A stretch of 64,000 nt of DNA from Clostridiales bacterium GWF2_38_85 (GCA_001797275.1 MGOY01000008.1:14083-78082), one strand, 5' to 3'. Counted from the stretch's first letter, positions 2,899-62,320 are shown. The notes: generated by a model not told the origin, from the letters alone. Numbers and translations: made by a program.

Positions 2899-4041
2899 TT
2901 AATCTTTGAAAATTACACCCTGTACATATTCTCTCGCAGATTTATCTGCATCGAGAATATCCTTTATTGTATTTACGTCCTTCGGACTAATTGCTTCGGT
3001 TGTTCGTATGACTATTTCAGCAATCTCCAAAAAGCTTATTTTCTTATTTAAAAACAAGGCAACAGCTGCTTCATTTGCTCCGTTCATAACTGTGGGTGCT
3101 GTTTCACCGATGTCAAACGCCTTCATTGCGAGCTGTAGAAGCGGGAAGGTTTCGTAATCGGGTTTTGCAAAATGCAGATAACTGATTTTCGTAAAGTCAA
3201 GAGGTTCTGATAATGATGCTTTGCGATCCGGATATGTCAGTGCATATTGTATCGGAAGTCGCATATCATGCGAACCAAGCTGTGCGATAACAGAATTGTC
3301 TTCAAACTCGACCATTGAATGAATAATGCTTTCGCGATGTATAACTATATCTATCTGCTTGCTTGTCAGATTAAAAAGATGAGCCGCTTCGATAAACTCG
3401 AGTCCTTTATTCATCAATGTGGCAGAATCAACGGTTATTTTTGCACCCATGCTCCAGTTGGGATGTTTGAGTGCATCATCAAGCGAAACATTCTTCAACA
3501 TATCCTTAGTATAACCAAAAAAGCTGCCGCCCGAAGCAGTAATGATGATTTTCTTAGGTTTACATTGACCCTGAAGGCACTGAAATATAGCTGAATGCTC
3601 GCTGTCTACAGGTATTATGTCAACTTTATTTTGCTTTGCTGACTTCATGATTAATTCACCGCCAGCTACAAGTGTTTCTTTATTAGCAAGAGCAATGCGT
3701 TTTTTTGCACTGATTGCTGCCATAGTTGGGGCGAGTCCGCTTATACCCAGTAATGAATTAAATATGATGTCTGCATTCTTATCCTGCGCAAGCTCACAAA
3801 GAGCATCGCTCCCTGCCAGAACCTCTGTATTGGTATCTGCAAGCGCAAGCTTCAATATATCATATTTTGCTTCGGAAATCCAGCATCTCGCTGGTCTAAA
3901 CTCTCTGCACTGCTTTTCTAATAATATATGATTGTTACCTGCAGATAATGCAGTTATTTTAATGCCGAGAAGCCTTGCAACCTCAAGTGCCTGAGTTCCT
4001 ATTGAGCCTGTCGAGCCGAGCAGAACCATGCTTTTTATCAT
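2899..4041 (-). CDS. dxr: 1-deoxy-D-xylulose 5-phosphate reductoisomerase
   Basis: LGSTGSIGTQ NADPH motif, plus LANKETLV, DSEHSAIFQCL and HPNWSMG. Confidence 0.96.
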   Translation of the reverse strand: MIKSMVLLGSTGSIGTQALEVARLLGIKITALSAGNNHILLEKQCREFRPARCWISEAKYDILKLALADTNTEVLAGSDALCELAQDKNADIIFNSLLGISGLAPTMAAISAKKRIALANKETLVAGGELIMKSAKQNKVDIIPVDSEHSAIFQCLQGQCKPKKIIITASGGSFFGYTKDMLKNVSLDDALKHPNWSMGAKITVDSATLMNKGLEFIEAAHLFNLTSKQIDIVIHRESIIHSMVEFEDNSVIAQLGSHDMRLPIQYALTYPDRKASLSEPLDFTKISYLHFAKPDYETFPLLQLAMKAFDIGETAPTVMNGANEAAVALFLNKKISFLEIAEIVIRTTEAISPKDVNTIKDILDADKSAREYVQGVIFKD

Positions 4042-22002: not shown

Positions 22003-22767
22003 TACCGATTTCGCCTTCCACTCTTTTGGGCTGCAGTCATGGAGTTTGTTGAACAGGCGATAGAAGGCTGACAGGTCGTTATAACCGCATTCCTCAGCAA
22101 TCAGCTGGACTGTACGGTTGGTTGACAGCAGAAGCTGGCGCGCATGATTCATCCGAAGCTCTGAGATATACTGATGCGGTGTGATTCCGTATGATTTTTT
22201 GAATGAACGGATAATATAGTCCTTTGAATAATTCAGCTTTTCTTCAAGCAGCGACAGCGAAAGCGGTTCGCTGTATTTTTCTGCGAGTATGTTCTCAATG
22301 GTTTTAGCAAGTGATGCTTCCTTCTCTTCGATTGTATTTGTTTCTTTCAGTTTTTGAAGTATCTCATAAAATACGCTTGTTATTTCAAGTCGGGTTTTCG
22401 TTTTAGATTTGATCAGGCTATCAAGCTTGAAAAGCAATTCCTTCGTATCGTTGAATGAAAATGTGCCTTTGATTGCAATTCCGGGTGTCGGGTCGGTGAA
22501 GTCGCCATTAAAATGAATATAATAATACTTTGGTGAGCTGCTCGGAGCTACACCCTCCTGAAACAGATTAGCTTTCTGGATGTAATACTGTCCTGCCGAA
22601 ACTTCTACCGGTACATTGTTTTCAGAGAATCTGAGGATGCCCGAAAATACCATCAATAGAACATCCTCGTTGATTGTTCTTGTTATATGCTTTTCATCCG
22701 GGTAAAAATAACGAAACGATGAATTGATGTATTCAGGTAGTGTATCAAAGCTTAAGTATTTGTTCAT
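21997..22767 (-). CDS. AraC family transcriptional regulator
   Basis: N-terminal cupin-like sensor and C-terminal double HTH (ITPHQYISELRMNHARQLL...IAEECGYNDLSAFYRLFNK). Start chosen at MNKYLSF after GGAG (the ORF extends to 22818). Confidence 0.88.
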   Translation of the reverse strand: MNKYLSFDTLPEYINSSFRYFYPDEKHITRTINEDVLLMVFSGILRFSENNVPVEVSAGQYYIQKANLFQEGVAPSSSPKYYYIHFNGDFTDPTPGIAIKGTFSFNDTKELLFKLDSLIKSKTKTRLEITSVFYEILQKLKETNTIEEKEASLAKTIENILAEKYSEPLSLSLLEEKLNYSKDYIIRSFKKSYGITPHQYISELRMNHARQLLLSTNRTVQLIAEECGYNDLSAFYRLFNKLHDCSPKEWKAKSVL

Positions 22768-22863
22768 ATTATTCTCCATCTCGCCGCATAAATAGCTATG
22801 AAAAAGCACATTCCACAAAGCGGATGCTGCTCATGCTTTACGAGCAGCAAGTGGCTTTTTACT

Positions 22864-22888
22864 GCGTGAAAATTCATTTTTCACGCTA
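22864..22888. promoter_or_regulatory. perfect palindrome GCGTGAAAA-N5-TTTTCACGC in the AraC/GH127 divergent region
   Basis: 9-bp arms at 22864-22872 and 22878-22886. The minus-strand reading contains TAGCGTGAAAAAT. Confidence 0.5.
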
Positions 22889-23019
22889 TTTCCTTTTCCA
22901 TTGTTATAAGTAATATACTTCATCAGGTCGATTTTTGCAAGTGTTTGTTCGTATTATTCTATTACAAAATAACGAAAAACTGATAAAATTGAAGAAAAAC
23001 AGTAAGAAGGTGCTTTGGT

Positions 23020-26617: not shown

Positions 26618-26636
26618 TTAAATATTTATGGTAATA

Positions 26637-26676
26637 ATAAAAAGTGCTTCAACTTAAAATAGTGAAGCACTTTTTA
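26637..26676. terminator. bidirectional intrinsic terminator between convergent genes
   Basis: AAAAAGTGCTTCA(N10)TGAAGCACTTTTT. Confidence 0.8.
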
Positions 26677-27501
26677 TTATTTCGAGTTAATATTTAACCA
26701 CCTTACAACTCCATCATCTGTATTTGGGTCGATTATGGCAGTTGCTTTTTCTTTGACTTCAGGTTTTGCATTCTCTACTGCATAACTTTCATCGCTTGCC
26801 AAGAACATAGGTATGTCGTTAAGATTGTCACCGAAGGCAATTATTTTATCAAAACCATATTCCCTTTTCAGATATTGAACAGCATTGTATTTTGATGCTT
26901 TATCCGAGCATATTTCAAGATACCAATTGTTTTCGTTGTATATATCCCTGTAGAATTCTGTTCGAATGCCTACAATTGCTTTTAACTCTGCATACAAAGG
27001 TTGAAGGTTCTCTGCAATATCTGATACTGAATAATAAACGATTGATTTATCTTTGCAATCGAAGAAGCTGTCAACTTTAGTGAATACTTTGCCATACTTC
27101 ATCTCGCGTTCCTCGATGTATTTTTTTGATATTAAATCATCTACGTTTTCATAATATTTTGATAACTTGTCATCATCAATAGAATAGAAAAATCCTCTAC
27201 CATTATGTTTTTTGACCGTTTCGATAACCTTCATTTTAGACTCTTCGGGAAATCTTTCGATTTTCATATACTTATTTTCTTGAAGATCATAGATACATAC
27301 TCCGTTCATCAGTACAATCGGAACATTCAGATTTACACCGTTGAACATTTTTATTACAGTTGTTGCTGTTCTTGCTGTTGCGATACTCAAATGTATGTTT
27401 TTCTCAAGCAGTTGACATAATACTGTCTTTGCGTATTCGCTTAGTTCAGCATCTTTATTCAAAAGAGTACCGTCAAGGTCTGAGATATAAAGTGTTTTCA
27501 T
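26677..27501 (-). CDS. Cof-type HAD-IIB phosphatase
   Basis: Motifs LYISDLDGTLLN and AFGDNLNDIPMF, with a large cap domain. Confidence 0.85.
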   Translation of the reverse strand: MKTLYISDLDGTLLNKDAELSEYAKTVLCQLLEKNIHLSIATARTATTVIKMFNGVNLNVPIVLMNGVCIYDLQENKYMKIERFPEESKMKVIETVKKHNGRGFFYSIDDDKLSKYYENVDDLISKKYIEEREMKYGKVFTKVDSFFDCKDKSIVYYSVSDIAENLQPLYAELKAIVGIRTEFYRDIYNENNWYLEICSDKASKYNAVQYLKREYGFDKIIAFGDNLNDIPMFLASDESYAVENAKPEVKEKATAIIDPNTDDGVVRWLNINSK

Positions 27502-27512
27502 TTTTAATCCAT

Positions 27513-28166
27513 TTATATATCACTCAATAACTCATTGAGTTCAACTATACTTTCCGCAATATATTCAGATCTTGCATTTTTCAATTCATCTAAGCTGCCA
27601 TAACCGTATAAAACACCGATCGAGTCAATACCTGTTTTCTTAGCACCTATAATATCATGTTCCCTGTCACCAATCATTATAACTGCAGAACGGTCGGTGA
27701 TTCCACAAGATCTTAACGCATATTCTATAACATCATTCTTTGCGACTCTGGTTCCGTCAAGATAGCTGCCTGATACGAAATCAAAATAATTTGCTATATC
27801 AAAATGTTCAAGTATTCGTTCTGCAAATATTGTTGCTTTTGATGTCGCAAGGATTATGGACTTCCCTCTTTGTTTTTGTTCTGAAAGCATTTTTTCAACG
27901 CCATCATAAACTTTATTTTCAAATATACCTTTATCCCTGAAATACTCTCGGAAATATTCAATAGCAACCTTTGCCGTTTCTTTTTGCATACCGAAGTAGA
28001 ATTCAAACGAATCGGTTAATAGCGGCCCAATCAGCTTTTTCAGCTCTGATTTTTCTGGTACTATAATGTCAAGCTTATTCAATGAATAGGCAAACGAGTT
28101 TGTAATACCTTCAGCCGGATCAGTTAATGTTCCATCAAGATCGAATAATAAATATCTTTTTTTCAA
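27513..28166 (-). CDS. HAD-IA family hydrolase (phosphoglycolate phosphatase-like)
   Basis: Motifs LLFDLDGTLTD, ATSK and IGDREHDIIGA. Confidence 0.85.
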   Translation of the reverse strand: MKKRYLLFDLDGTLTDPAEGITNSFAYSLNKLDIIVPEKSELKKLIGPLLTDSFEFYFGMQKETAKVAIEYFREYFRDKGIFENKVYDGVEKMLSEQKQRGKSIILATSKATIFAERILEHFDIANYFDFVSGSYLDGTRVAKNDVIEYALRSCGITDRSAVIMIGDREHDIIGAKKTGIDSIGVLYGYGSLDELKNARSEYIAESIVELNELLSDI

Positions 28167-28169
28167 AAT

Positions 28170-28952
28170 CTACTCCTTTGTAGCATTTGATATTTCTTCC
28201 ATTTGTCTAATCTTGTATCCTACATCTTCAGGGCAATGAGCATCAGAAGCTGTTATAATCCTGATCTTATTCGCTTTTATAGCTTTTATTAGTTCAACCG
28301 ACATACCAAGCTCTGCATTGGTTCTTCTGCTACTTCCGCTGTTTTGTTCAGCATACATATCGCTTTTTGCTAATTCTGCTGCAAGAGAATTATAGTACTC
28401 TGTTAATTCAAAAGTCGGTTTATGACCGTACAGCTTTATACAATCCGGATGTGCGATGCCATCGAAGACTCTACTTTTAGCCAAATCTATGCTTGTTTCA
28501 AAATAACGTTTATATGCTTCATCAACATCGACGCCATCCCAAAATTCCGGTTTATGGTCATATGCAAAATGATCGATAAAATGAATGCTGCCAATAGTAA
28601 AATCAAATCCTTTATTTTTGATTAACTGACCAATAAATTCTTCTGAATTTTTGAAATAGCAGATTTCAAGTCCGAATTTAATTTTTATAGGTAGTTCAGA
28701 ATTTCTGACCTCATCAATTAAATGAAGATAATCACTTAAGTTGCAAACTCCGCCTTTTTTCGCAAGCCATGTTTTAATATAGCTATTATTTGCACAAATA
28801 TCATTGTACATCGGTAAGAATTCTATAAATCGATAGCTGTGCTCAAGAAGCCAAATTTCACTTAGTCCTTGTTCGACAGCTTTATTTATAAACTTGTTAA
28901 TCCAATCAAGAGTATATGGACCTCTTTCAATATGAATATGGCAATCAGTCAT
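28170..28952 (-). CDS. PHP-domain phosphoesterase (HisJ-family histidinol-phosphatase-like)
   Basis: N-terminal DCHIHI, internal GSIHF and AHPD, C-terminal SDAH. Confidence 0.7.
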   Translation of the reverse strand: MTDCHIHIERGPYTLDWINKFINKAVEQGLSEIWLLEHSYRFIEFLPMYNDICANNSYIKTWLAKKGGVCNLSDYLHLIDEVRNSELPIKIKFGLEICYFKNSEEFIGQLIKNKGFDFTIGSIHFIDHFAYDHKPEFWDGVDVDEAYKRYFETSIDLAKSRVFDGIAHPDCIKLYGHKPTFELTEYYNSLAAELAKSDMYAEQNSGSSRRTNAELGMSVELIKAIKANKIRIITASDAHCPEDVGYKIRQMEEISNATKE

Positions 28953-29827
28953 ACTATTTCTTCGATAATATCATATAAATTCAATTCTTCCGCAGCCTTT
29001 TTCCAATAGATTTCTGGTATTATACCGTCTTCCATAAAGCATCTGTCTTCTGAAGCAATTTGGTATGCACGTCTCACGCATTGCATTGGCATATCAGTAC
29101 CTGTCTTGATAAGCGCAATAATACTGTTGCCCCAGACTAGTGACTTTTTTAGGATTTCACTCTTTTTGAATTCATGAATCAATTTTTCTCTATCATAAGG
29201 TATCGAAATTAATTCGTCCTGCCATTTATTATTTATATACTCCAGAGAAACAAATTGAGCATTTGTCTGCCTGTTAGTGGGTAACCCAACACTGCCCACA
29301 AACACGATTTCTTTATTTTCAAAAACATACTTATGGTATCTATGAGTATGACCGCAGAATAAATAGTCTGCATCGATTGAATCGAGATATTTCTTCATCA
29401 ACTCATCTTTTCCGCATATCCACTCATTTGATTTTACCGGAGAGCCATGACAGATTGTAATTGGTGGATAGTAATCAATCGAAATATTCATACATATAGG
29501 CATACTTTCAAAAGTTTTTATATCTGCTTCAGTTAAATTTTCGTATGTATAAAGTACTGCTCCTGTACTCGAAGCATATCGCCATTTTTTGTTATTGCTG
29601 TTATGATAATTTATTATATAGTCTTCTCGATTACCTCTGATGAACCATGTTTTATAACCTTGTGTTCTTGTTTTCAGAAGTTCAAGAGTTTTTTGCGGAT
29701 ATAGGCAATCGCTTATATAATCACCTAAAAATACTAATCCATCATAATTATTTGTATCAATATAATTCAAGCACTCCTCAAGCGCTGTGAAATTGCCGTG
29801 TATATCTGCGAGTAAAGCAAGTTTCAC
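28949..29827 (-). CDS. metallophosphoesterase family protein
   Basis: Motifs LLADIHGN, FLGDYISD, GNRE, CGHTH and GS.G. A GTG start after GGAG overlaps the upstream stop (TAGTG). Alternative ATG at 29851. Confidence 0.8.
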   Translation of the reverse strand: MKLALLADIHGNFTALEECLNYIDTNNYDGLVFLGDYISDCLYPQKTLELLKTRTQGYKTWFIRGNREDYIINYHNSNNKKWRYASSTGAVLYTYENLTEADIKTFESMPICMNISIDYYPPITICHGSPVKSNEWICGKDELMKKYLDSIDADYLFCGHTHRYHKYVFENKEIVFVGSVGLPTNRQTNAQFVSLEYINNKWQDELISIPYDREKLIHEFKKSEILKKSLVWGNSIIALIKTGTDMPMQCVRRAYQIASEDRCFMEDGIIPEIYWKKAAEELNLYDIIEEIV

Positions 29828-30741
29828 TAATTTATCACTCCTGTGTACCATTTTGGAATAGGATTTTGCATATAATCGTAGAATTCTAATACTTCCTTTG
29901 ATTGATTTAGCATTGTTTCTATTTCTTTCCGGCCGAAAGGTATTGCCCAATATACTGATGAAAGAGTGTTTGATATAATATAAAATGCAAGCAATTTAAA
30001 AAAATCTTCTGGTACTTCATTATTAAAATAACCGTTTATTCTGCCGGAAGCGAAATATTTACTGCAATGAGCGCACCAAACAATACGATTGAATTCTTCC
30101 CAAGGGTCTCCGTAATCAAATCTGTTGAAATCAATTATAGATAAATTGTTATCTGATGAAATTATCATATTACCGACATGGTAATCTCCATGATTCAACG
30201 ACTGAGGACGATTTGCAAGCAAATGTCTGTTTTTTTCGATATAATCAAAGAAATAGTTATCACCGTCTATTTTTATACCGCATTCAAGGTATTTTTTAAT
30301 TTTATTATCTGTTTTTCTATTGAATCGTGTTTCCCAGTTTTCCTGAGTTGCAGGAGCCGGAATTGAATGAATTCTCTGAAGTATTTTCCCTGCTTCAACA
30401 CCAATCTCATATTGCTCTTTCGAAGACAGCTCGTGTAATATTGTTTCAGCATCCTCGCCCTCAATCCATGTTAGAAGCATATAACAATTTAACCCTTTGT
30501 TACAATAACCAAAGTCAATCGGCTGCGACATAGGTATCTCTGTTTCGGATATTGTTTTCAATACTTTGAATTCTGATTTTTTGCGGTCATAGTTTAATGC
30601 ATCAGACAATCGCAGCAGCAAACGTCGGTTATCATTGGTTTCAATATAGTATTTCTTATCCTCAGACCAACCTTTTTCAACCAGTATGACTTTTGAGAAT
30701 GAATTGTATTGAGGTATGTCAGAAATCAAATTAATCTCCAT
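29827..30741 (-). CDS. aminoglycoside phosphotransferase (APH)/choline-kinase-fold kinase
   Basis: Brenner motif NHGDYHVGNMII and IIDFNRFDYGDPWEEF. The true start may be the TTG 15 nt downstream of the ATG. Confidence 0.8.
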   Translation of the reverse strand: MEINLISDIPQYNSFSKVILVEKGWSEDKKYYIETNDNRRLLLRLSDALNYDRKKSEFKVLKTISETEIPMSQPIDFGYCNKGLNCYMLLTWIEGEDAETILHELSSKEQYEIGVEAGKILQRIHSIPAPATQENWETRFNRKTDNKIKKYLECGIKIDGDNYFFDYIEKNRHLLANRPQSLNHGDYHVGNMIISSDNNLSIIDFNRFDYGDPWEEFNRIVWCAHCSKYFASGRINGYFNNEVPEDFFKLLAFYIISNTLSSVYWAIPFGRKEIETMLNQSKEVLEFYDYMQNPIPKWYTGVIN

Positions 30742-30921
30742 TCTACCGCACAGCGGTTATAAAAATATAGCGTGAAATGTGTTACCTCACTATATTATAT
30801 AAAACTAACAAATGAATTAGGATATTATTGATTTTGAAAAAGCCGTACAGAAAAGGCTTTTTCAAAATCGCTAAGGTAATTCATTTATTAGTTTTATATA
30901 GTTAACTTAATTTTCACGCTA
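30742..30921 (-). promoter_or_regulatory. conserved leader unit, copy A (TAGCGTGAAAA box ... GC hairpin ... start), interrupted by a nested palindrome
   Basis: Homologous to 33241-33319 at about 80% identity outside the insertion. See findings. Confidence 0.6.
30796..30900. repeat. 105-nt AT-rich nested palindromic element, full copy 1
   Basis: Outer arms TATATAAAACTAACAAATGAATTA / TAATTCATTTATTAGTTTTATATA. Inner perfect 15-bp stem GATTTTGAAAAAGCC / GGCTTTTTCAAAATC. Confidence 0.85.
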
Positions 30922-31429
30922 CCTCCAAAAATTTCTTTATTTCTTTTCTTGTTTTCAGAATAATAATATTTTTTCCTTTTTGGTACTCAATCATTTTAAT
31001 GATATCCGGTCGACTTCTCTTAGGAAAATTGTATATCCATTTTAAAAACTCAAAATCTATCTTCTCTTTACAACCGCTACCCATATCCGGTCGAACTTTA
31101 CCGATATGTGTCAAGCATCGTTTTATCACACTGTAAAGGCAAATCCACCTCTTAATATCAAGAAAAATTATTGTATCAGCTTTTTCAGCTCTCAAATCCA
31201 TTGTGCCGCCGTAATTTCCATCGATTATCCATTCTTCGGCTTCTATTATTTTTGTTTGCACTTCTATCCACTCATCTCGTGGTGTTTGAATCCAATTATC
31301 TTTCCAGAACAGCTTGTCAAGATGAATAAGAGGCAAGCTTAATTTATTATGTAACTTTTTCGCAAATGTAGTTTTTCCGCTACCGGCACTACCTATAATC
31401 ATAATGCGTTTAGATTCTGATAAATCCAT
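30914..31429 (-). CDS. P-loop NTPase, adenylate-kinase-like (topology modulation protein family)
   Basis: Walker A IIGSAGSGKTT and about 170 aa, matching the FlaR/topology-modulation-type small kinase pattern. Confidence 0.7.
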   Translation of the reverse strand: MDLSESKRIMIIGSAGSGKTTFAKKLHNKLSLPLIHLDKLFWKDNWIQTPRDEWIEVQTKIIEAEEWIIDGNYGGTMDLRAEKADTIIFLDIKRWICLYSVIKRCLTHIGKVRPDMGSGCKEKIDFEFLKWIYNFPKRSRPDIIKMIEYQKGKNIIILKTRKEIKKFLEVA

Positions 31430-31450
31430 AACTACCTCTCATATACTGTT

Positions 31451-31966
31451 CTATTTACTGAACAAAAACTTCTCAAATGCTTTTCTTAATGGTATCAGTC
31501 TTGTGCCAACCGGCTCAGCAATCATACCGCTGTTTATCATCTCATCCAACTTACCAAGTGTTACCCATTGTGCGTCGACCGTTTCGCTCTCTTGCATAAC
31601 AAGCTCGCTTATTTCGACATCTTTTCTGATTATATATGTATCAATAAACGCTGTTTCTTCTTTCAATTCTCCAAGAAAATTCAGTTCGTTTTCTTCTGCT
31701 TTTATTCCTGTTTCTTCGAACAATTCTCTAACTGCTCCCTGTACGCTTGTTTCACCGGCAAGTATTGAGCCTGCTGAGTTTTCCCAAAGGTTTGGAAAGC
31801 ATTCCTTATTTGGATCGCGAAGTGTCAGCAGAATTTCTTGTTTGCTGTTGACCGTCCATATATCGACGACGATATGATAATCACCTCGTTTAATATGTTC
31901 GCCTCTTTTTTGCAATCTACCAAGCAGCTGTCTGTTACCGTCGTATAAATCCCAAAGCTCCATCAT
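31451..31966 (-). CDS. NUDIX hydrolase
   Basis: Nudix box GETSVQGAVRELFEETGI. Confidence 0.88.
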   Translation of the reverse strand: MMELWDLYDGNRQLLGRLQKRGEHIKRGDYHIVVDIWTVNSKQEILLTLRDPNKECFPNLWENSAGSILAGETSVQGAVRELFEETGIKAEENELNFLGELKEETAFIDTYIIRKDVEISELVMQESETVDAQWVTLGKLDEMINSGMIAEPVGTRLIPLRKAFEKFLFSK

Positions 31967-33240
31967 TTCAATCCTTCCAGTACATCAATAATTTCTGTCC
32001 AATTCTTTATATGCTGATGGTTATAATCAATAGTATCGGTGTATTTGTCACGATAATAGCATTCAATATTGCTGTCATACCACACAGGAAACATACCGGC
32101 TGAGTTTGCTCCTGCGATATCATAATAGACATTATCACCGCAAAACCAAATTTCTTCGGGTTTCAGATTTGCTTTTTTTATTGCAAGCTCAAATATCATA
32201 GGATCGGGTTTTCGCACAATATATTCACTTGATGCTATTATAAATTCGAATTTATTATTAGGAAAATTTTTGTTTATACGTTCTGCGAGAGAATCACCTG
32301 AGAATGAAATATTGCTTATAACACCGCTTCTGATTTTATTTTCATTTATGTAACTGATAACTTTATCTATATCAGACATTTTTTCACCGGGCGCAGCGTT
32401 ATCCCAGAATATCTGCTCTATCTCATCAGGCTCAAGTGGAATGTCAATTTCAAGATACTCGTAAAGCATGCGTTGAAATTTGTGATTGTGGAATTCCAAA
32501 GCATTTGTTCTTGCAATTGGCCTGAGCTTTGAAAAGAAATTTGCGGAAAACTCACTGTCTTGAATGGGTGTCAGATTGTTTTTATTATACACCGCATACT
32601 TCATTACAGCTTCGGTTCCCTTAACACCATTAAATCCGAGTTCGCACATCAGAGTATGACCATAATCAAATATAATCATCTTTGGATAAGTCATTTTAAG
32701 TTTGCTCTTTTCTTTTTCAGCTTTTCTCAATATATCTTCAAGAAAATCGTGTTTTCCTTCAATGTACAAGTCAATATCATGTCGATACTTTTCGGCAAGC
32801 TGTATTTTTAATTTGCCGTATTCATCTGCTGCTGTTTTATATTTACGCAGATAATCCCTGAATACAATATGTCTTGCAAGCTCACGGCTATTTTTCGGGC
32901 ATACATACATATGATAATCCATAAATTCATTCTTGAAGTTTCTCTTAAATGCTTCGCGTGCCTTAATTCCGAGATCACCTTCATGACTATATCCGAGTGC
33001 TTCAAGTCGATTGACGAGTTCGGGGAATATGTCATATGATTCAATTATGATATTGAAATCGATAATTGGCTTTGCTGATAATCCCTCAACCGATGTGCTG
33101 CCAACATGCTCAATCCCAATGATGATATCTGAGATGTGAGGCATTAACATATCTTTTATCTTCTCAAATTCGTTTTTCCATTCGGGGTTATAGGGTTCGA
33201 CAATAATTGTGCGGTTTGGATTATACATATTAATTTCCAT
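31963..33240 (-). CDS. GrpB (UPF0157, nucleotidyltransferase-fold) - HAD-like hydrolase fusion protein
   Basis: N-terminal half: IIVEPYNPEW...IEHVGSTSVEGLSAKPIIDFNI...HMYVC (GrpB). C-terminal half: IIFDYGHTL...SNISFSG...FCGDNVYYDIAGANSAG (HAD motifs I-IV, with the second Asp of motif I replaced). Confidence 0.75.
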   Translation of the reverse strand: MEINMYNPNRTIIVEPYNPEWKNEFEKIKDMLMPHISDIIIGIEHVGSTSVEGLSAKPIIDFNIIIESYDIFPELVNRLEALGYSHEGDLGIKAREAFKRNFKNEFMDYHMYVCPKNSRELARHIVFRDYLRKYKTAADEYGKLKIQLAEKYRHDIDLYIEGKHDFLEDILRKAEKEKSKLKMTYPKMIIFDYGHTLMCELGFNGVKGTEAVMKYAVYNKNNLTPIQDSEFSANFFSKLRPIARTNALEFHNHKFQRMLYEYLEIDIPLEPDEIEQIFWDNAAPGEKMSDIDKVISYINENKIRSGVISNISFSGDSLAERINKNFPNNKFEFIIASSEYIVRKPDPMIFELAIKKANLKPEEIWFCGDNVYYDIAGANSAGMFPVWYDSNIECYYRDKYTDTIDYNHQHIKNWTEIIDVLEGLK

Positions 33241-33319
33241 TCTGCCGCGTAGCGGCTGTATAAAATATAAGGTGAAATAAATTACCTTCCATCATTTGTT
33301 AAGTTAATTTTCACGCTAT
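33241..33319 (-). promoter_or_regulatory. conserved leader unit, copy B (compact)
   Basis: Minus-strand sequence TAGCGTGAAAATTAACTTAAC...GGTAATTTATTTCACCTTATATTTTATACAGCCGCTACGCGGCAGAATGGAAATTAAT. Confidence 0.6.
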
Positions 33320-34069
33320 CTGTCTCCTTTTATAAATGTCTCCGCTTTCGACAGAATATCCTTATATTTTTCATGTATAAGCAGGTTGCAAGTTGTTTCT
33401 CTATCTGTCCAGATATATTCTTTGATTTCCGAATTTGGTGTTATAACTGTGTTTGACACCTCAGACAAAAATAAAATTACCTGTTTTTGGCGAAGCGGAT
33501 TAATATTGTAAACTATTTCTTCACGAAAATCAAGTACTAATTTTACATTTATTCCTATTTCTTCTCGAACTTCGCGAATTGCTGTATCAGATTCAATTTC
33601 AAAAACTTCCGAATGTCCTTTAGGAAAGCTCCAGGTTCTTGATTTTTGTTGAAACAATAATAAATATTCGATATTGAAATTTGTTTTGCTTTTTTCGATA
33701 AATAATTACCCCACAGGATTTCTTATAAAGAGCATGTATTGTTGTTTTGAAATATAACTCTTGAAAATTAACCGCTTCGGCAACCTCTGCTTGATTTAGC
33801 TTCACATTTTCGGGAGCGACAACCCATTTATCTTCAACATCATCTTCTCTTTTAATTACAGCAATAATTCTTCCTGTGAACTGCTTGACAGGATGGTCAA
33901 CACCGAGAAGGTACGCATCCTGTTCCTCGCCATCGGGTGCAATAACACCTTCTATGTAGCCGTAATTCACTGGATAAATGATATTTTTATATTCAGGATG
34001 TGTGCTTCCAAGCGGTCTGTCTACTGTAACTATTTGATTTAATATATCATCATACATATCTATGACCAT
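33316..34069 (-). pseudogene. inorganic-pyrophosphatase-like domain - NUDIX fusion gene, interrupted by a 1-nt frameshift
   Basis: ORF 33620-34108 (VDRPLGSTHPE...YPVNYGYI...DGEEQDAYLLG...EDKWVV...SCGVIIYRKKQNKFQY) and ORF 33316-33657 (WSFPKGHSE...AIREVREEIGI). They join into one NUDIX domain if one base near 33668-33675 is removed (..KFQ-EYLLLFQQKSRTWSFPKGH). Confidence 0.7.
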
Positions 34070-34089
34070 TCCTTTTTTTATATATAAAC

Positions 34090-34118
34090 ATAATAACATA
34101 GTTTTCATGTTTATTCAA
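34090..34118 (-). promoter_or_regulatory. sigma-A-type promoter at the head of the phosphoesterase island
   Basis: Minus-strand TTGAAT (34118-34113), 17 nt, then TG-n-TATTAT (34095-34090). Confidence 0.55.
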
Positions 34119-34128
34119 TAAATGCATT

Positions 34129-34155
34129 ATAAAACTCATCCGAAATTCGGATGAG
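34129..34155 (-). terminator. intrinsic terminator after the 50-aa ORF
   Basis: Minus-strand CTCATCCGA-ATT-TCGGATGAG followed by TTTTAT. Confidence 0.8.
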
Positions 34156-34165
34156 CTGCCAAGAT

Positions 34166-34318
34166 TTACATCGGTTTCGCTTTTTTATGTCCCTTTTTCG
34201 CCTTGCCCTTAATCTCCGGGACCGGGGTTACATCATTCTTTTCGATGTTCATTCTTTCCCAGTTCTCTGTTCCATGTGGTTGCTTTGGATCCGGTCTTCT
34301 CATACCCGCTTTCGCCAT
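34166..34318 (-). CDS. small basic protein, 50 aa (hypothetical; hand-called, below the ORF-track cutoff)
   Basis: MAKAGMRRPDPKQPHGTENWERMNIEKNDVTPVPEIKGKAKKGHKKAKPM. The ATG abuts the upstream stop (TAAATG) with GAAGGAG 10 nt upstream, and a terminator follows. Confidence 0.55.
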   Translation of the reverse strand: MAKAGMRRPDPKQPHGTENWERMNIEKNDVTPVPEIKGKAKKGHKKAKPM

Positions 34319-34747
34319 TTACAAATACTCCTTCAGTTTTTGAATATTATTTTCTTCAAATTTCAACAGCTTATCCATTAATTTTCTTATATCGACTTCG
34401 GTGTCTTTATATTTCTTCAGATTTTTTATTGCATCGATAACGCCCATATTGCTGCCAATGATAAGCATTTCAGTGATATGTGAAGATGACTTGTCTGTCA
34501 TTGTCTGCAGGTTTATCATCAGATAAGTCTTGATTTTCTCAAGAGCTGATAAACCTTTTTCATCATATCCAGCTTTATTTAACAATCCTTTTGCTTCAAT
34601 ATGAATTTTTTCATATTCGTTATATTGATTTTGAAGCTGTTTCTTAAATGTTATATCTGACGATATTCCTATTAATTGATTTAAAGTATCAACACCCATT
34701 TGCGAATTCTGATATATAAAATTTAATAGTTCCGCATTTTCGTTCAT
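34319..34747 (-). CDS. hypothetical helical protein
   Basis: Start chosen at MNENAELLNF after GGGGAGAG (the ORF extends to 34807). No family recognised with confidence. Confidence 0.55.
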   Translation of the reverse strand: MNENAELLNFIYQNSQMGVDTLNQLIGISSDITFKKQLQNQYNEYEKIHIEAKGLLNKAGYDEKGLSALEKIKTYLMINLQTMTDKSSSHITEMLIIGSNMGVIDAIKNLKKYKDTEVDIRKLMDKLLKFEENNIQKLKEYL

Positions 34748-34944
34748 GTTTTCACTCTCCCCAGGATTATTATGTGTAAAAAATAAAGTGTCATTCTGAC
34801 TTAACAATGATAAGTGAAGATTCTTATAATAAGTTGAATTGTTAAAGCGGTTATATTTGATTTGAATAGACGAATTTGTATTGTTACTGGTAGTATTGGT
34901 ATATCATAATTATAACGGTTAAGGATTAAAAAATAGATATATTG

Positions 34945-51555: not shown

Positions 51556-51666
51556 TTTATATTAAACTAACAAATGAATTGTGATTTTATTAATTTGAAA
51601 AGACCAAAGAGTATAGACACTTTTCAAATTGCTTAGGTAATTCATTTATTAGTTTAATATAGTTAA
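51556..51666. repeat. AT-rich nested palindromic element, full copy 2
   Basis: ATATTAAACTAACAAATGAATT...AATTTGAAAAG(N17)CTTTTCAAATT...AATTCATTTATTAGTTTAATAT, followed by AGTTAA as in copy 1. Confidence 0.85.
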
Positions 51667-61609: not shown

Positions 61610-61717
61610 GAAACAAGGAATTTAGCGTGAAAAATATACAATGCAAAGATACAGTGGCGCGTATCTCCATGTATTATTCATGACTATTTTTGCCCGAAAC
61701 AGGGCATGGAGATTATA
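61610..61717 (+). promoter_or_regulatory. structured leader of the radical-SAM gene with the TAGCGTGAAAAAT box and an anti-SD/SD pairing option
   Basis: TAGCGTGAAAAAT at 61623-61635. ATCTCCATG (61663-61671) is exactly complementary to CATGGAGAT (61705-61713), which contains the SD. Confidence 0.5.
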
Positions 61718-62320
61718 ATGCTGACTATAACTTACATTGTCGACAACTCGCTTTATGTCAACATAACAAACCGCTGTACAAACAACTGCGATTTCTGTAT
61801 CCGAAATAATGGGGATGGAGCATATGGCAGCAACAGCTTATGGCTCGAACGTGAACCGACAGTTGATGAAATTTACAATGATATCATGAAATATCAACTC
61901 GATAAATACGATGAACTGATATTCTGCGGATACGGTGAACCGACAATGCGTGTTTACGACCTCGTTGAAGTCGCAAAAAAAGTTAAGGCGGCATCGAATA
62001 TTCATATACGGATTAATACGAACGGACATGCCAATCTTGTTCACCGCACAGATGTAACTCCCCTTTTCGAAGGAATAATTGATACTGTATCTATCAGTCT
62101 TAACAATGCCAATAAAGAGGATTACAACAGTATCTGCCACCCAGCATATAAAAATGCATATGAAAAGATGATAGAATTTACTGCTCTTTGTTCAAAACAT
62201 GTAGAAAATGTCGTTATGTCTGTGGTCCACGGTACGATCCCAGATGAGAATCTTGAGAAGTGCAGAATTATCGCAGAAAATGCAGGTGCAAAGCTCAGAA
62301 TCCGTGAATACATCTCATAA
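61718..62320 (+). CDS. TatD-associated radical SAM protein (TIGR04038-like)
   Basis: CTNNCDFC (CxxxCxxC) near the N-terminus. Lies immediately downstream of tatD. An alternative start lies at 61706. Confidence 0.8.
   Translation: MLTITYIVDNSLYVNITNRCTNNCDFCIRNNGDGAYGSNSLWLEREPTVDEIYNDIMKYQLDKYDELIFCGYGEPTMRVYDLVEVAKKVKAASNIHIRINTNGHANLVHRTDVTPLFEGIIDTVSISLNNANKEDYNSICHPAYKNAYEKMIEFTALCSKHVENVVMSVVHGTIPDENLEKCRIIAENAGAKLRIREYIS

Follow-up and report, generated by a model that had tools for sequence, protein, structure and literature searches.

A compact island of phosphoester- and nucleotide-handling enzyme genes with copies of a generic leader element in Clostridiales bacterium GWF2_38_85

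Gene content and boundaries of the island

The metagenome-assembled genome (MAG) of Clostridiales bacterium GWF2_38_85 carries ten consecutive minus-strand open reading frames (ORFs) at positions 26677-34108 of the stretch analyzed here (64,000 nucleotides; GCA_001797275.1, MGOY01000008.1:14083-78082), which we refer to as the window and whose coordinates are used throughout. We delineated this gene island with an ORF list and with independent gene calls on L001, a 139-kb contig of the same organism from a separate assembly record, and assigned the encoded proteins to families with Pfam and NCBIfam. An initial annotation, made from the sequence alone, had described about ten packed minus-strand genes for phosphoester- and nucleotide-handling enzymes that overlap or are separated by no more than 21 nt, and the ORF list, the L001 gene calls and both family databases bear out this description. 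The genes and their flanking signals are, in the 5' to 3' order of the minus strand:

34128-34157, minus strand: intrinsic terminator closing the upstream rplQ/162-aa/50-aa unit (stem CUCAUCCGAA/UUCGGAUGAG, then UUUUAU)
34090-34118, minus strand: candidate sigma-70 promoter TTGAAT-17-TATTAT with a TG-extended -10 (consensus match only)
33620-34057, minus strand: PPase-like domain, making up the 5' portion of PPase-like-NUDIX, a frameshifted gene (PF00719, E 2.7e-5)
33316-33690, minus strand: NUDIX domain, 3' part of the PPase-like-NUDIX gene, in another frame (PF00293)
31963-33228, minus strand: GrpB + HAD (DREG-2/CTE7-like) fusion gene (PF04229 + PF13419)
31451-31966, minus strand: NUDIX hydrolase, here NUDIX2 (PF00293)
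30914-31429, minus strand: P-loop adenylate-kinase-like protein (NF005994, 247 bits versus a cut-off of 215)
29827-30729, minus strand: APH-fold small-molecule kinase with a TTG start (PF01636)
28949-29851, minus strand: calcineurin-like metallophosphoesterase (MPE) with a C-terminal helical extension (PF00149/PF12850)
28170-28952, minus strand: PHP-domain phosphoesterase of the HisJ family (PF02811, TIGR01856)
27513-28166, minus strand: HAD-IA hydrolase, PGP/PpaX-like (PF13419)
26677-27501, minus strand: Cof-type HAD-IIB phosphatase (PF08282; TIGR00099, 142 bits versus a cut-off of 137)
26634-26680, unstranded: terminal intrinsic terminator, probably bidirectional and common to a convergent GGDEF gene (folding)

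Adjacent genes overlap by 4 nt (GrpB-HAD/NUDIX2 and MPE/PHP) or 25 nt (APH/MPE), or leave gaps of 3 nt (PHP/HAD-IA), 11 nt (HAD-IA/Cof) and 21 nt (NUDIX2/P-loop). The starts of the APH and GrpB-HAD genes given in the initial annotation required correction, as the true starts lie 5 and 4 codons, respectively, 3' of the longest-ORF starts. Public gene calls agree on these later starts (P0001, 299 aa, TTG; P0121, 421 aa, ATG), and the TTG (APH) and ATG (GrpB-HAD) sit 6 nt past the GGAG/GGAA of the leaders described below. The ORF of the PPase-like part spans 33620-34108, with the ATG at 34057 as its probable true start, and the ORF of the NUDIX fragment covers 33316-33657. Within the island there is no transporter or regulator gene, which together with the single compact unit confirms two further features of the initial annotation, co-transcription of the genes being only probable. 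GC content gives no signal of horizontal transfer (0.33-0.35 in the island, 0.32-0.42 nearby).

Both flanking terminators were established by folding, and a terminator scan flagged neither. The upstream terminator folds with -16.1 kcal/mol (z -3.7) and the terminal one with -21.8 kcal/mol (z -8.1). The promoter sequence and the downstream terminator named initially were both found, the latter as a well-folding hairpin. Two ORFs separate rplQ from the island, one of 162 aa without a Pfam match (34319-34807, minus strand) and one of 50 aa, rich in lysine (34166-34318, minus strand). The L001 gene calls include both, and a terminator of their own closes them.

The first gene of the island is frameshifted, as the initial annotation had stated. 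Intact PPase-like-NUDIX homologues of 257-265 aa, aligned with tblastn, follow frame 1 to ~33660 and frame 2 from ~33687, and the switch falls at or near an A6 run (homopolymer CGAAAAAAGC, window ~33685-33695, minus strand). A single ORF across the PPase-like and NUDIX domains is found neither in the window nor in L001, each of which holds the two frames. The PPase-like part is 54-56% identical to intact fusions (P0348, P0350, P0353), and both NUDIX proteins of the island carry a Nudix box of the form GX5EX7REUXEEXGU, which reads GHSEVFEIESDTAIREVREEIGI for the frameshifted gene and GETSVQGAVRELFEETGI for NUDIX2. The frameshift may stem from an error of sequencing or assembly, from decay to a pseudogene or from programmed slippage at a site prone to it.

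The leader element in the window and in other genomes

The GrpB-HAD and APH genes are each preceded by a copy of one leader element, and R1, a covariance model of the leader 3' core, found two further copies outside the island. The four copies in the window, and an insertion in one of them, are:

33229-33330, minus strand: leader B, upstream of GrpB-HAD (R1, 57.7 bits)
30730-30930, minus strand: leader A, upstream of APH (R1, 49.4 bits)
30795-30905, unstranded: palindromic insertion of 114 nt within the leader A P1 loop, resembling a miniature inverted-repeat transposable element (MITE; -67.6 kcal/mol, z -9.3)
61617-61720, plus strand: copy C, between tatD and a radical-SAM gene, with the variant P3 stem GCCC/GGGC (R1, 25.3 bits, E 3e-4)
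22765-22895, minus strand: copy D, in the 5' untranslated region of an AraC-type regulator gene, P1 perfect and P3 degenerate (covariance model; z -3.8)

Copies C and D are the more divergent. With the 114-nt palindrome of A removed, A and B are 84% identical over 80 aligned bases; measured by alignment columns, the identity is 72% for A-B and 50-62% for every pair involving C or D. Leaders A and B, here taken as 30730-30920 and 33229-33318, agree at both ends: each has the 5' module TAGCGTGAAAATTAA as well as the 3' module CCGCnnnGCGGnAGAATGGArATTAAT, after which comes the start codon. Leader B consists of a first Shine-Dalgarno sequence (SD1), a GTG-initiated mini-ORF (MKINLTNDGR), helix P1, the P3 hairpin GCCGC-UAC-GCGGC, a second Shine-Dalgarno sequence (SD2) and the ATG. 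In leader A the mini-ORF reads MKIKLTI, and the TGA stop of the upstream gene falls in the 5' strand of P1. A second copy of the palindrome, 79-84% identical to the first, lies at 51557-51666, in an intergenic position upstream of the S10 ribosomal-protein operon.

In public collections, scanning for the leader 3' core returned 12 metagenome loci and at least 117 genome loci, the latter compared with ~8 chance matches expected in 596 Gb by our own arithmetic. The genome matches listed come from ~70 assemblies, uncultured Clostridia that include Oscillospiraceae, Lachnospiraceae, Ruminococcus and 'Eubacteriales'. Among these matches, three assemblies hold 10-17 loci each and about ten matches in other phyla are evidently due to chance. 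When redundant instances were removed from the matches listed, 130 were left, of which 112 are oriented with a real ORF and lie 5-9 nt ahead of its start (85 of 130 with exactly 6 nt and an ATG); this proximity is partly imposed, as the pattern searched for contains the SD. The remaining 18 comprise chance matches to other phyla, tandem or decayed copies and copies truncated at a contig end. The search pattern biases the leader set; R1 adds few copies to the pattern matches, and a relaxed scan yielded only two alternative P3 stems. Three features are independent of this pattern, namely TATTTGTGCYG, which is kept upstream of P3, a GCGTGAAA...TTTCACGC module present in 37 instances, and the paired middle helix P2 described below. 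Among the 37 full copies, 17 are intercistronic and the rest are preceded by non-coding sequence.

The genes downstream of the leader are of all kinds: among the matches listed, 105 downstream proteins contain 162 Pfam families, with examples such as carbamoyl-phosphate synthase (carB), arginyl-tRNA synthetase (argS), glycogen phosphorylase, glycoside hydrolases and peptidases. Several instances precede orthologous genes in different species. Because the window alone holds four copies and such a range of families follows the leader elsewhere, we regard it as a generic element of the lineage and not as the mark of an island-specific regulon. The initial proposal that a shared leader identifies co-regulated modules of the island is not supported by this distribution, and the diversity of downstream families likewise rules out an island-specific riboswitch or regulon.

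In almost every full copy, minimum free energy (MFE) folding recovers P1, P2 and P3 (z -2 to -6), and P2 varies in sequence between genomes with its pairing kept. In the SD region of these folds, AAUG(G) is base-paired with (C)UAUU; in leader B, the predicted pairing is UUUU with GGAA. The proximal anti-SD pairs occur in 62-80% of 80 sequences; the distal part of the predicted SD-sequestering helix, with ~45% pairing, was no better than shuffled or slid controls and is not supported. By-eye counting placed an SD-like GGAGG 4-8 nt before a GTG in the P1 5' strand in ~90% of full copies. The mini-ORF that follows begins with MK, comprises 3-100 codons (mode 6) and usually ends far upstream of SD2. 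Given this range of lengths and the recurrence of the first few residues only, a conserved leader peptide was ruled out.

From these parts, a role in translation can be proposed. The leader 5' end would close all three reading frames (with a TAG, a TGA and the mini-ORF stop) and so end upstream translation, and an SD with a GTG would then start the mini-ORF, the first codons of which make up one strand of P1. At the 3' end, the GC hairpin P3 would abut the extended SD AGAAUGGAG, 6 nt before the start codon; part of this SD is predicted to pair with a U-rich tract 5' of P3, leaving it partially occluded. AGAAUGGAG is complementary, with one mismatch, to the 16S rRNA 3' end known from Bacillota. 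Because it combines frame closure, a mini-ORF and a P3-insulated, partly occluded SD, the leader may set or gate the start of translation at the following cistron, whatever that gene encodes.

Comparison with catalogued elements returned no counterpart. The window had no Rfam match at the gathering threshold, the leaders had no relevant match up to E 5, and seven loci with well-formed copies had none up to E 0.5. A full-text literature search for the leader core sequence, as DNA or RNA, gave no match, and a keyword search on intergenic repeats retrieved nothing relevant. When 37 full copies were inspected by eye for the hallmarks of MITEs or repetitive extragenic palindromes (REPs), the ends GCGTGAAA and GGAGATTAAT were not inverted repeats and no target-site duplication was seen. 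A Rex-type operator (GTGAA...TTCAC) was ruled out, also by eye, since the distance between the half-sites varies from 3 to 130 nt and they act like the strands of an RNA helix; a promoter inside the leader, with CAGAAT as -10, was rejected for want of a suitably spaced -35 box, again by eye. Tentatively, uncultured Clostridia (Oscillospiraceae, Lachnospiraceae and unclassified lineages) may share a widespread and so far undescribed family of structured RNA modules, to which the leader would belong. With a variable P2 and an invariant GC hairpin, such a module would serve genes of any function as a portable cassette for translation control, or for processing or stability, and recombination between its copies might shuffle gene blocks and explain how the island was assembled.

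This last idea can be stated more specifically for the island: recombination between leader copies would have brought in or duplicated the block of GrpB-HAD, NUDIX2 and P-loop genes, and the leader would be a site of gene shuffling in addition to an expression element. Leaders A and B are each other's closest relatives in the window (84% over aligned bases) and flank this block as direct repeats, with B upstream and A downstream. Tandem leader duplications occur elsewhere (L009/L093, L088, L091), and one assembly of the same organism (L002) breaks inside leader A. However, we found no empty site or alternative arrangement, no recombinase nearby, and no visible terminal inverted repeats or target-site duplications, and the presence of the leader at orthologous positions before carB, argS and the glycogen phosphorylase gene in different species indicates stable inheritance and not mobility. 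We therefore consider such cassette-like assembly unlikely; as it concerns the origin of the block, it would be compatible with the accretion of an operon that we favor below.

Several leader loci have features of their own. In the head-to-tail duplications of the whole leader (L009/L093, 973-1136; L088, 2889-3052; L091, 3218-3377), the ATTAAT of the first copy runs into the next GCGTGAAA in place of a start codon. In MAG AS10tlH2TH_216 (L050, L067, L069, L094), P2 contains 2-4 tandem repeats of ~20 nt (GCGATAyTTGyATCGCAGAC), an internal expansion of the middle module. Copies at L005 (10447-10480), L038 (5735-5790) and L085 (2712-2760) are apparently decayed, with ATC/ATA at the start position and no ORF after it. 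At L031, the leader lies between FMN and SAM riboswitches that score above the Rfam gathering threshold (1933-2066, ~2880-2990 and 3679-3780, all within 2 kb). The gene downstream at L003 had been a candidate gyrB, an assignment that was dropped as Pfam did not confirm it.

Enzyme families and their associations elsewhere

The enzyme families named in the initial annotation agree with Pfam and NCBIfam, but specific subfamily assignment succeeded for the P-loop protein only, which alone passes an NCBIfam equivalog cut-off (NF005994, 'DNA topology modulation protein'). The Cof (TIGR00099) and HisJ-family (TIGR01856, 93 bits versus 90.2) models were passed at subfamily level only. The PHP protein is below every equivalog cut-off and its gene lies outside any his operon, and all NCBIfam matches of the HAD-IA protein are below equivalog cut-offs. 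Among solved structures, the PHP protein matches 2yxo, a HisJ-type histidinol phosphatase (E 6.7e-21), and the MPE has a distant match in 3qfm (SapH-type, E 1e-5) that does not include the C-terminal extension. A keyword literature search on GrpB function returned nothing relevant. Taken singly, the genes belong to known superfamilies and show nothing out of the ordinary, save for the frameshift and for the GrpB-HAD fusion, which among the best 120 matches is seen in this organism only.

Initial suggestions for the island included the modification or detoxification of a phosphorylated or nucleotidylated xenobiotic, with the remark that APH and GrpB folds occur in antibiotic-modifying enzymes. 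The AlphaFold model of the APH-fold protein (predicted local distance difference test score 93.7) has the APH/eukaryotic-like kinase fold, with APH(2'')-IVa as the best match in the PDB (E 7.5e-12, template modeling (TM) score 0.62, 17% identity). The similarity to APH(2'') enzymes, CcrZ and FN3K is at the level of the fold only (14-18% identity, TM ~0.6). The best NCBIfam match, APH_3p, reaches 41.4 bits versus a cut-off of 205 bits, which does not permit assignment to the aminoglycoside-resistance APH enzymes, and NCBIfam resistance-gene cut-offs in general were missed by far. The subfamily is ~60% conserved across Bacillota, which, as far as sequence conservation goes, suggests a core role rather than a resistance function that was acquired.

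A nucleotide-centered role in defence against phage or in stress had also been raised. The island does encode NUDIX, P-loop and kinase-fold proteins, and PADLOC-DB returned weak matches for the NUDIX (candidate system PDC-S07, E 1e-10) and for the P-loop region (IetA and PtuA, over ~30 residues, E 1e-4). These matches reflect generic domain similarity, however: no match in PADLOC-DB was specific or at the level of a system, and six island proteins had none at all. Nor is there a nuclease, sensor or effector architecture, and the location right after the ribosomal-protein/rpoA cluster, the house-keeping families and the unremarkable GC content do not fit such a system, which we regard as highly improbable. 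With PADLOC giving no specific match and the resistance cut-offs far off, neither a defence nor an antibiotic-resistance role is supported.

To judge gene linkage, we inspected 11 independent neighborhoods around APH, HAD, PHP and MPE homologues, none of which reproduces the island. APH orthologues that are 61-62% identical are solitary, in surroundings unrelated to the island (L132; Paludicola, L133), and two HAD homologues (56-57% identity) also lie among unrelated genes; a PHP homologue (59%) and an MPE homologue fused to AP_endonuc_2 (43%) are likewise isolated. Among the best 120 matches, GrpB and HAD are combined in one protein only in this organism's own cluster (P0121), and stand-alone homologues of the HAD half are plentiful, at 50-60% identity. 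Certain pairs do recur: at L149 an unfused APH orthologue has a GrpB gene two genes upstream, at L134 a NUDIX gene adjoins a GrpB-APH fusion, at L147 a HAD gene directly follows an MPE-NUDIX fusion, and at L143 a Cof+HAD pair lies 3.5 kb from an MPE-APH fusion.

Several island families also occur fused to one another in other genomes. Of the 150 representative PPase-like homologues, 33 have a NUDIX partner and 14 a GrpB partner; the two of the latter that we checked (P0375, P0408) are GrpB-PPase-like-NUDIX proteins of ~420 aa. In the same set, the PPase-like domain occurs with GNAT in at least 18 and with a P-loop kinase in 3. Within the best 120 APH matches, GrpB-APH fusions form four clusters (P0014, P0092, P0103, P0112) and an APH-NUDIX fusion one (P0083); the APH halves of these fusions are 56-61% identical to the island APH, and the NUDIX half of P0083 is 29% identical to NUDIX2. 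The MPE homologues (n = 105) include fusions to an APH-fold domain (26), NUDIX (13) and GNAT (3), with the APH domain belonging to a subfamily other than that of the island. Overall, the PPase-like domain (~110 aa; homologues P0348-P0497) is promiscuous, its partners being NUDIX, GNAT, GrpB, P-loop kinase, methyltransferase, AAC(3), Tpt1 and others, and this accessory domain sits at either end of the protein. Separately, one of the GrpB-APH fusions (P0112, L145/L146) is encoded between an MFS transporter gene and two genes of the glyoxalase/bleomycin-resistance family, also near MarR and HxlR regulator genes, a neighborhood resembling those of xenobiotic response.

Such links raise the possibility that the genes of the island, or those of a core (PPase-like-NUDIX, GrpB, NUDIX2, APH and MPE), work together as a dedicated module whose substrates are a single class of small molecules carrying phosphate or nucleotidyl groups, for example in the modification and de-modification of an antibiotic-like xenobiotic or in the repair of a damaged nucleotide or cofactor. 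In this scheme GrpB would nucleotidylate and APH phosphorylate the substrate, the PPase-like domain would remove pyrophosphate, and NUDIX, MPE, PHP and HAD enzymes would hydrolyze the products. The Rosetta-stone fusions (GrpB-PPase-like-NUDIX, PPase-like-NUDIX, GrpB-APH, APH-NUDIX, MPE-NUDIX and MPE-APH-fold) and the neighborhood links at L149, L134, L147, L143 and L145 speak for it. Yet the fusion partners are promiscuous and extend to GNAT, methyltransferase, DHFR and TIM-barrel domains, a breadth more in keeping with a loose guild than with a fixed pathway; MPE-APH fusions carry the other APH subfamily; and the PHP, HAD-IA, Cof and P-loop genes have no recurrent link. In addition, the structure search returned generic APH-fold matches at 14-18% identity and no nameable substrate, and there is no synteny of the island. 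On this evidence we find a dedicated module doubtful, and comparison of the sequences points instead to a loose, repeatedly fused guild of families. The question of the initial annotation whether these families are linked beyond chance is thus answered positively for some pairs, through fusions and neighbors, and, in the neighborhoods inspected, negatively for the whole island, for which the scattering of orthologues that it had named as contrary evidence is largely what we observed.

Interpretation and comparison with known systems

In our reading, the island represents neither a conserved pathway nor a resistance cassette or defence system. On balance, we lean towards a lineage-specific operon built by accretion, in which house-cleaning and small-molecule-modifying enzymes share one expression unit and the gene blocks are separated by generic leader copies. 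Transcription would begin at the island's own promoter, just past the terminator that ends the rpoA-rplQ unit, proceed through three gene blocks joined by two sister copies of the leader, and stop at the strong terminator. The members (NUDIX, HAD, MPE, PHP, APH-fold kinase, GrpB with its nucleotidyltransferase fold and the adenylate-kinase-like P-loop protein) would form a guild for house-cleaning, metabolite repair or the modification of small molecules.

Four considerations weigh against this interpretation. We infer co-transcription, and promoter-like sites here are about as common as in shuffled sequence (43 versus 36.3 +/- 5.3), that is, without enrichment. The 3' strand of the SD-sequestering helix, like P3, is set by the search pattern and falls outside covariation testing. 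The neighborhoods inspected number only 11. Finally, the recurrent fusions and adjacencies among the same families argue that some of the genes, at least, have a functional theme in common that goes beyond accretion.

The island illustrates how enzymes of the house-cleaning type can accumulate in one operon, and the guild of GrpB, PPase-like, NUDIX, APH, MPE and GNAT provides a lead to the function of several large families, the APH subfamily included. If the leader is indeed a regulatory RNA, translation initiation of many genes in a large, mostly uncultured part of the Clostridia of gut, rumen and groundwater would be governed by a cis-element that is both abundant and new, and that would be a natural analogue of synthetic insulated ribosome-binding-site parts.

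The concept of house-cleaning phosphohydrolases, covering NUDIX, HAD and related families, was reportedly set out by Galperin and colleagues in 2006. The island proteins belong to the same superfamilies of small, soluble enzymes of broad specificity, predicted to act on non-canonical nucleotides and phosphorylated metabolites, and they hold the Nudix box and a DxD-type HAD motif I. Unlike house-cleaning enzymes in general, which are usually scattered in genomes, the island packs ten together and includes kinase- and nucleotidyltransferase-fold members. The APH fold, and the GrpB-APH and GNAT-PPase-like fusions, recall bifunctional resistance enzymes such as AAC(6')-Ie/APH(2'')-Ia; the island APH nevertheless differs from the APH(2'') enzymes in being only 14-18% identical (TM ~0.6) and in reaching 41 bits versus the NCBIfam cut-off of 205 bits. 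For the MPE and PHP proteins, the nearest solved relatives are the SapH-type MPE (3qfm) and the HisJ-type 2yxo, respectively.

Modular structured intergenic repeats are known from other bacteria, among them pneumococcal BOX, Bacillus cereus bcr1 and enterobacterial ERIC. Like them, the leader is multi-copy, intergenic and modular, with modules that are optional or duplicated, adopts a stable fold and tolerates insertions such as the 114-nt palindrome. In contrast to them, it is always oriented with the downstream gene and keeps a fixed register of SD, 6 nt and start codon; its 3' core is kept across many genera and at orthologous genes in different species, and it has no inverted termini.

Leaders that occlude an SD are also known, as in fourU RNA thermometers and leader-peptide attenuators (ermC, cat), and in synthetic bicistronic design. 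In predicted MFE folds, a U-rich tract of the leader pairs with the SD much as in fourU elements, the upstream SD and short ORF overlap a helix as in attenuators, and the order SD1-miniORF-SD2-gene is that of the bicistronic design. The leader differs from these systems in having no known link to temperature or antibiotics, in a mini-ORF whose length and peptide are not conserved, and in serving genes of all kinds.

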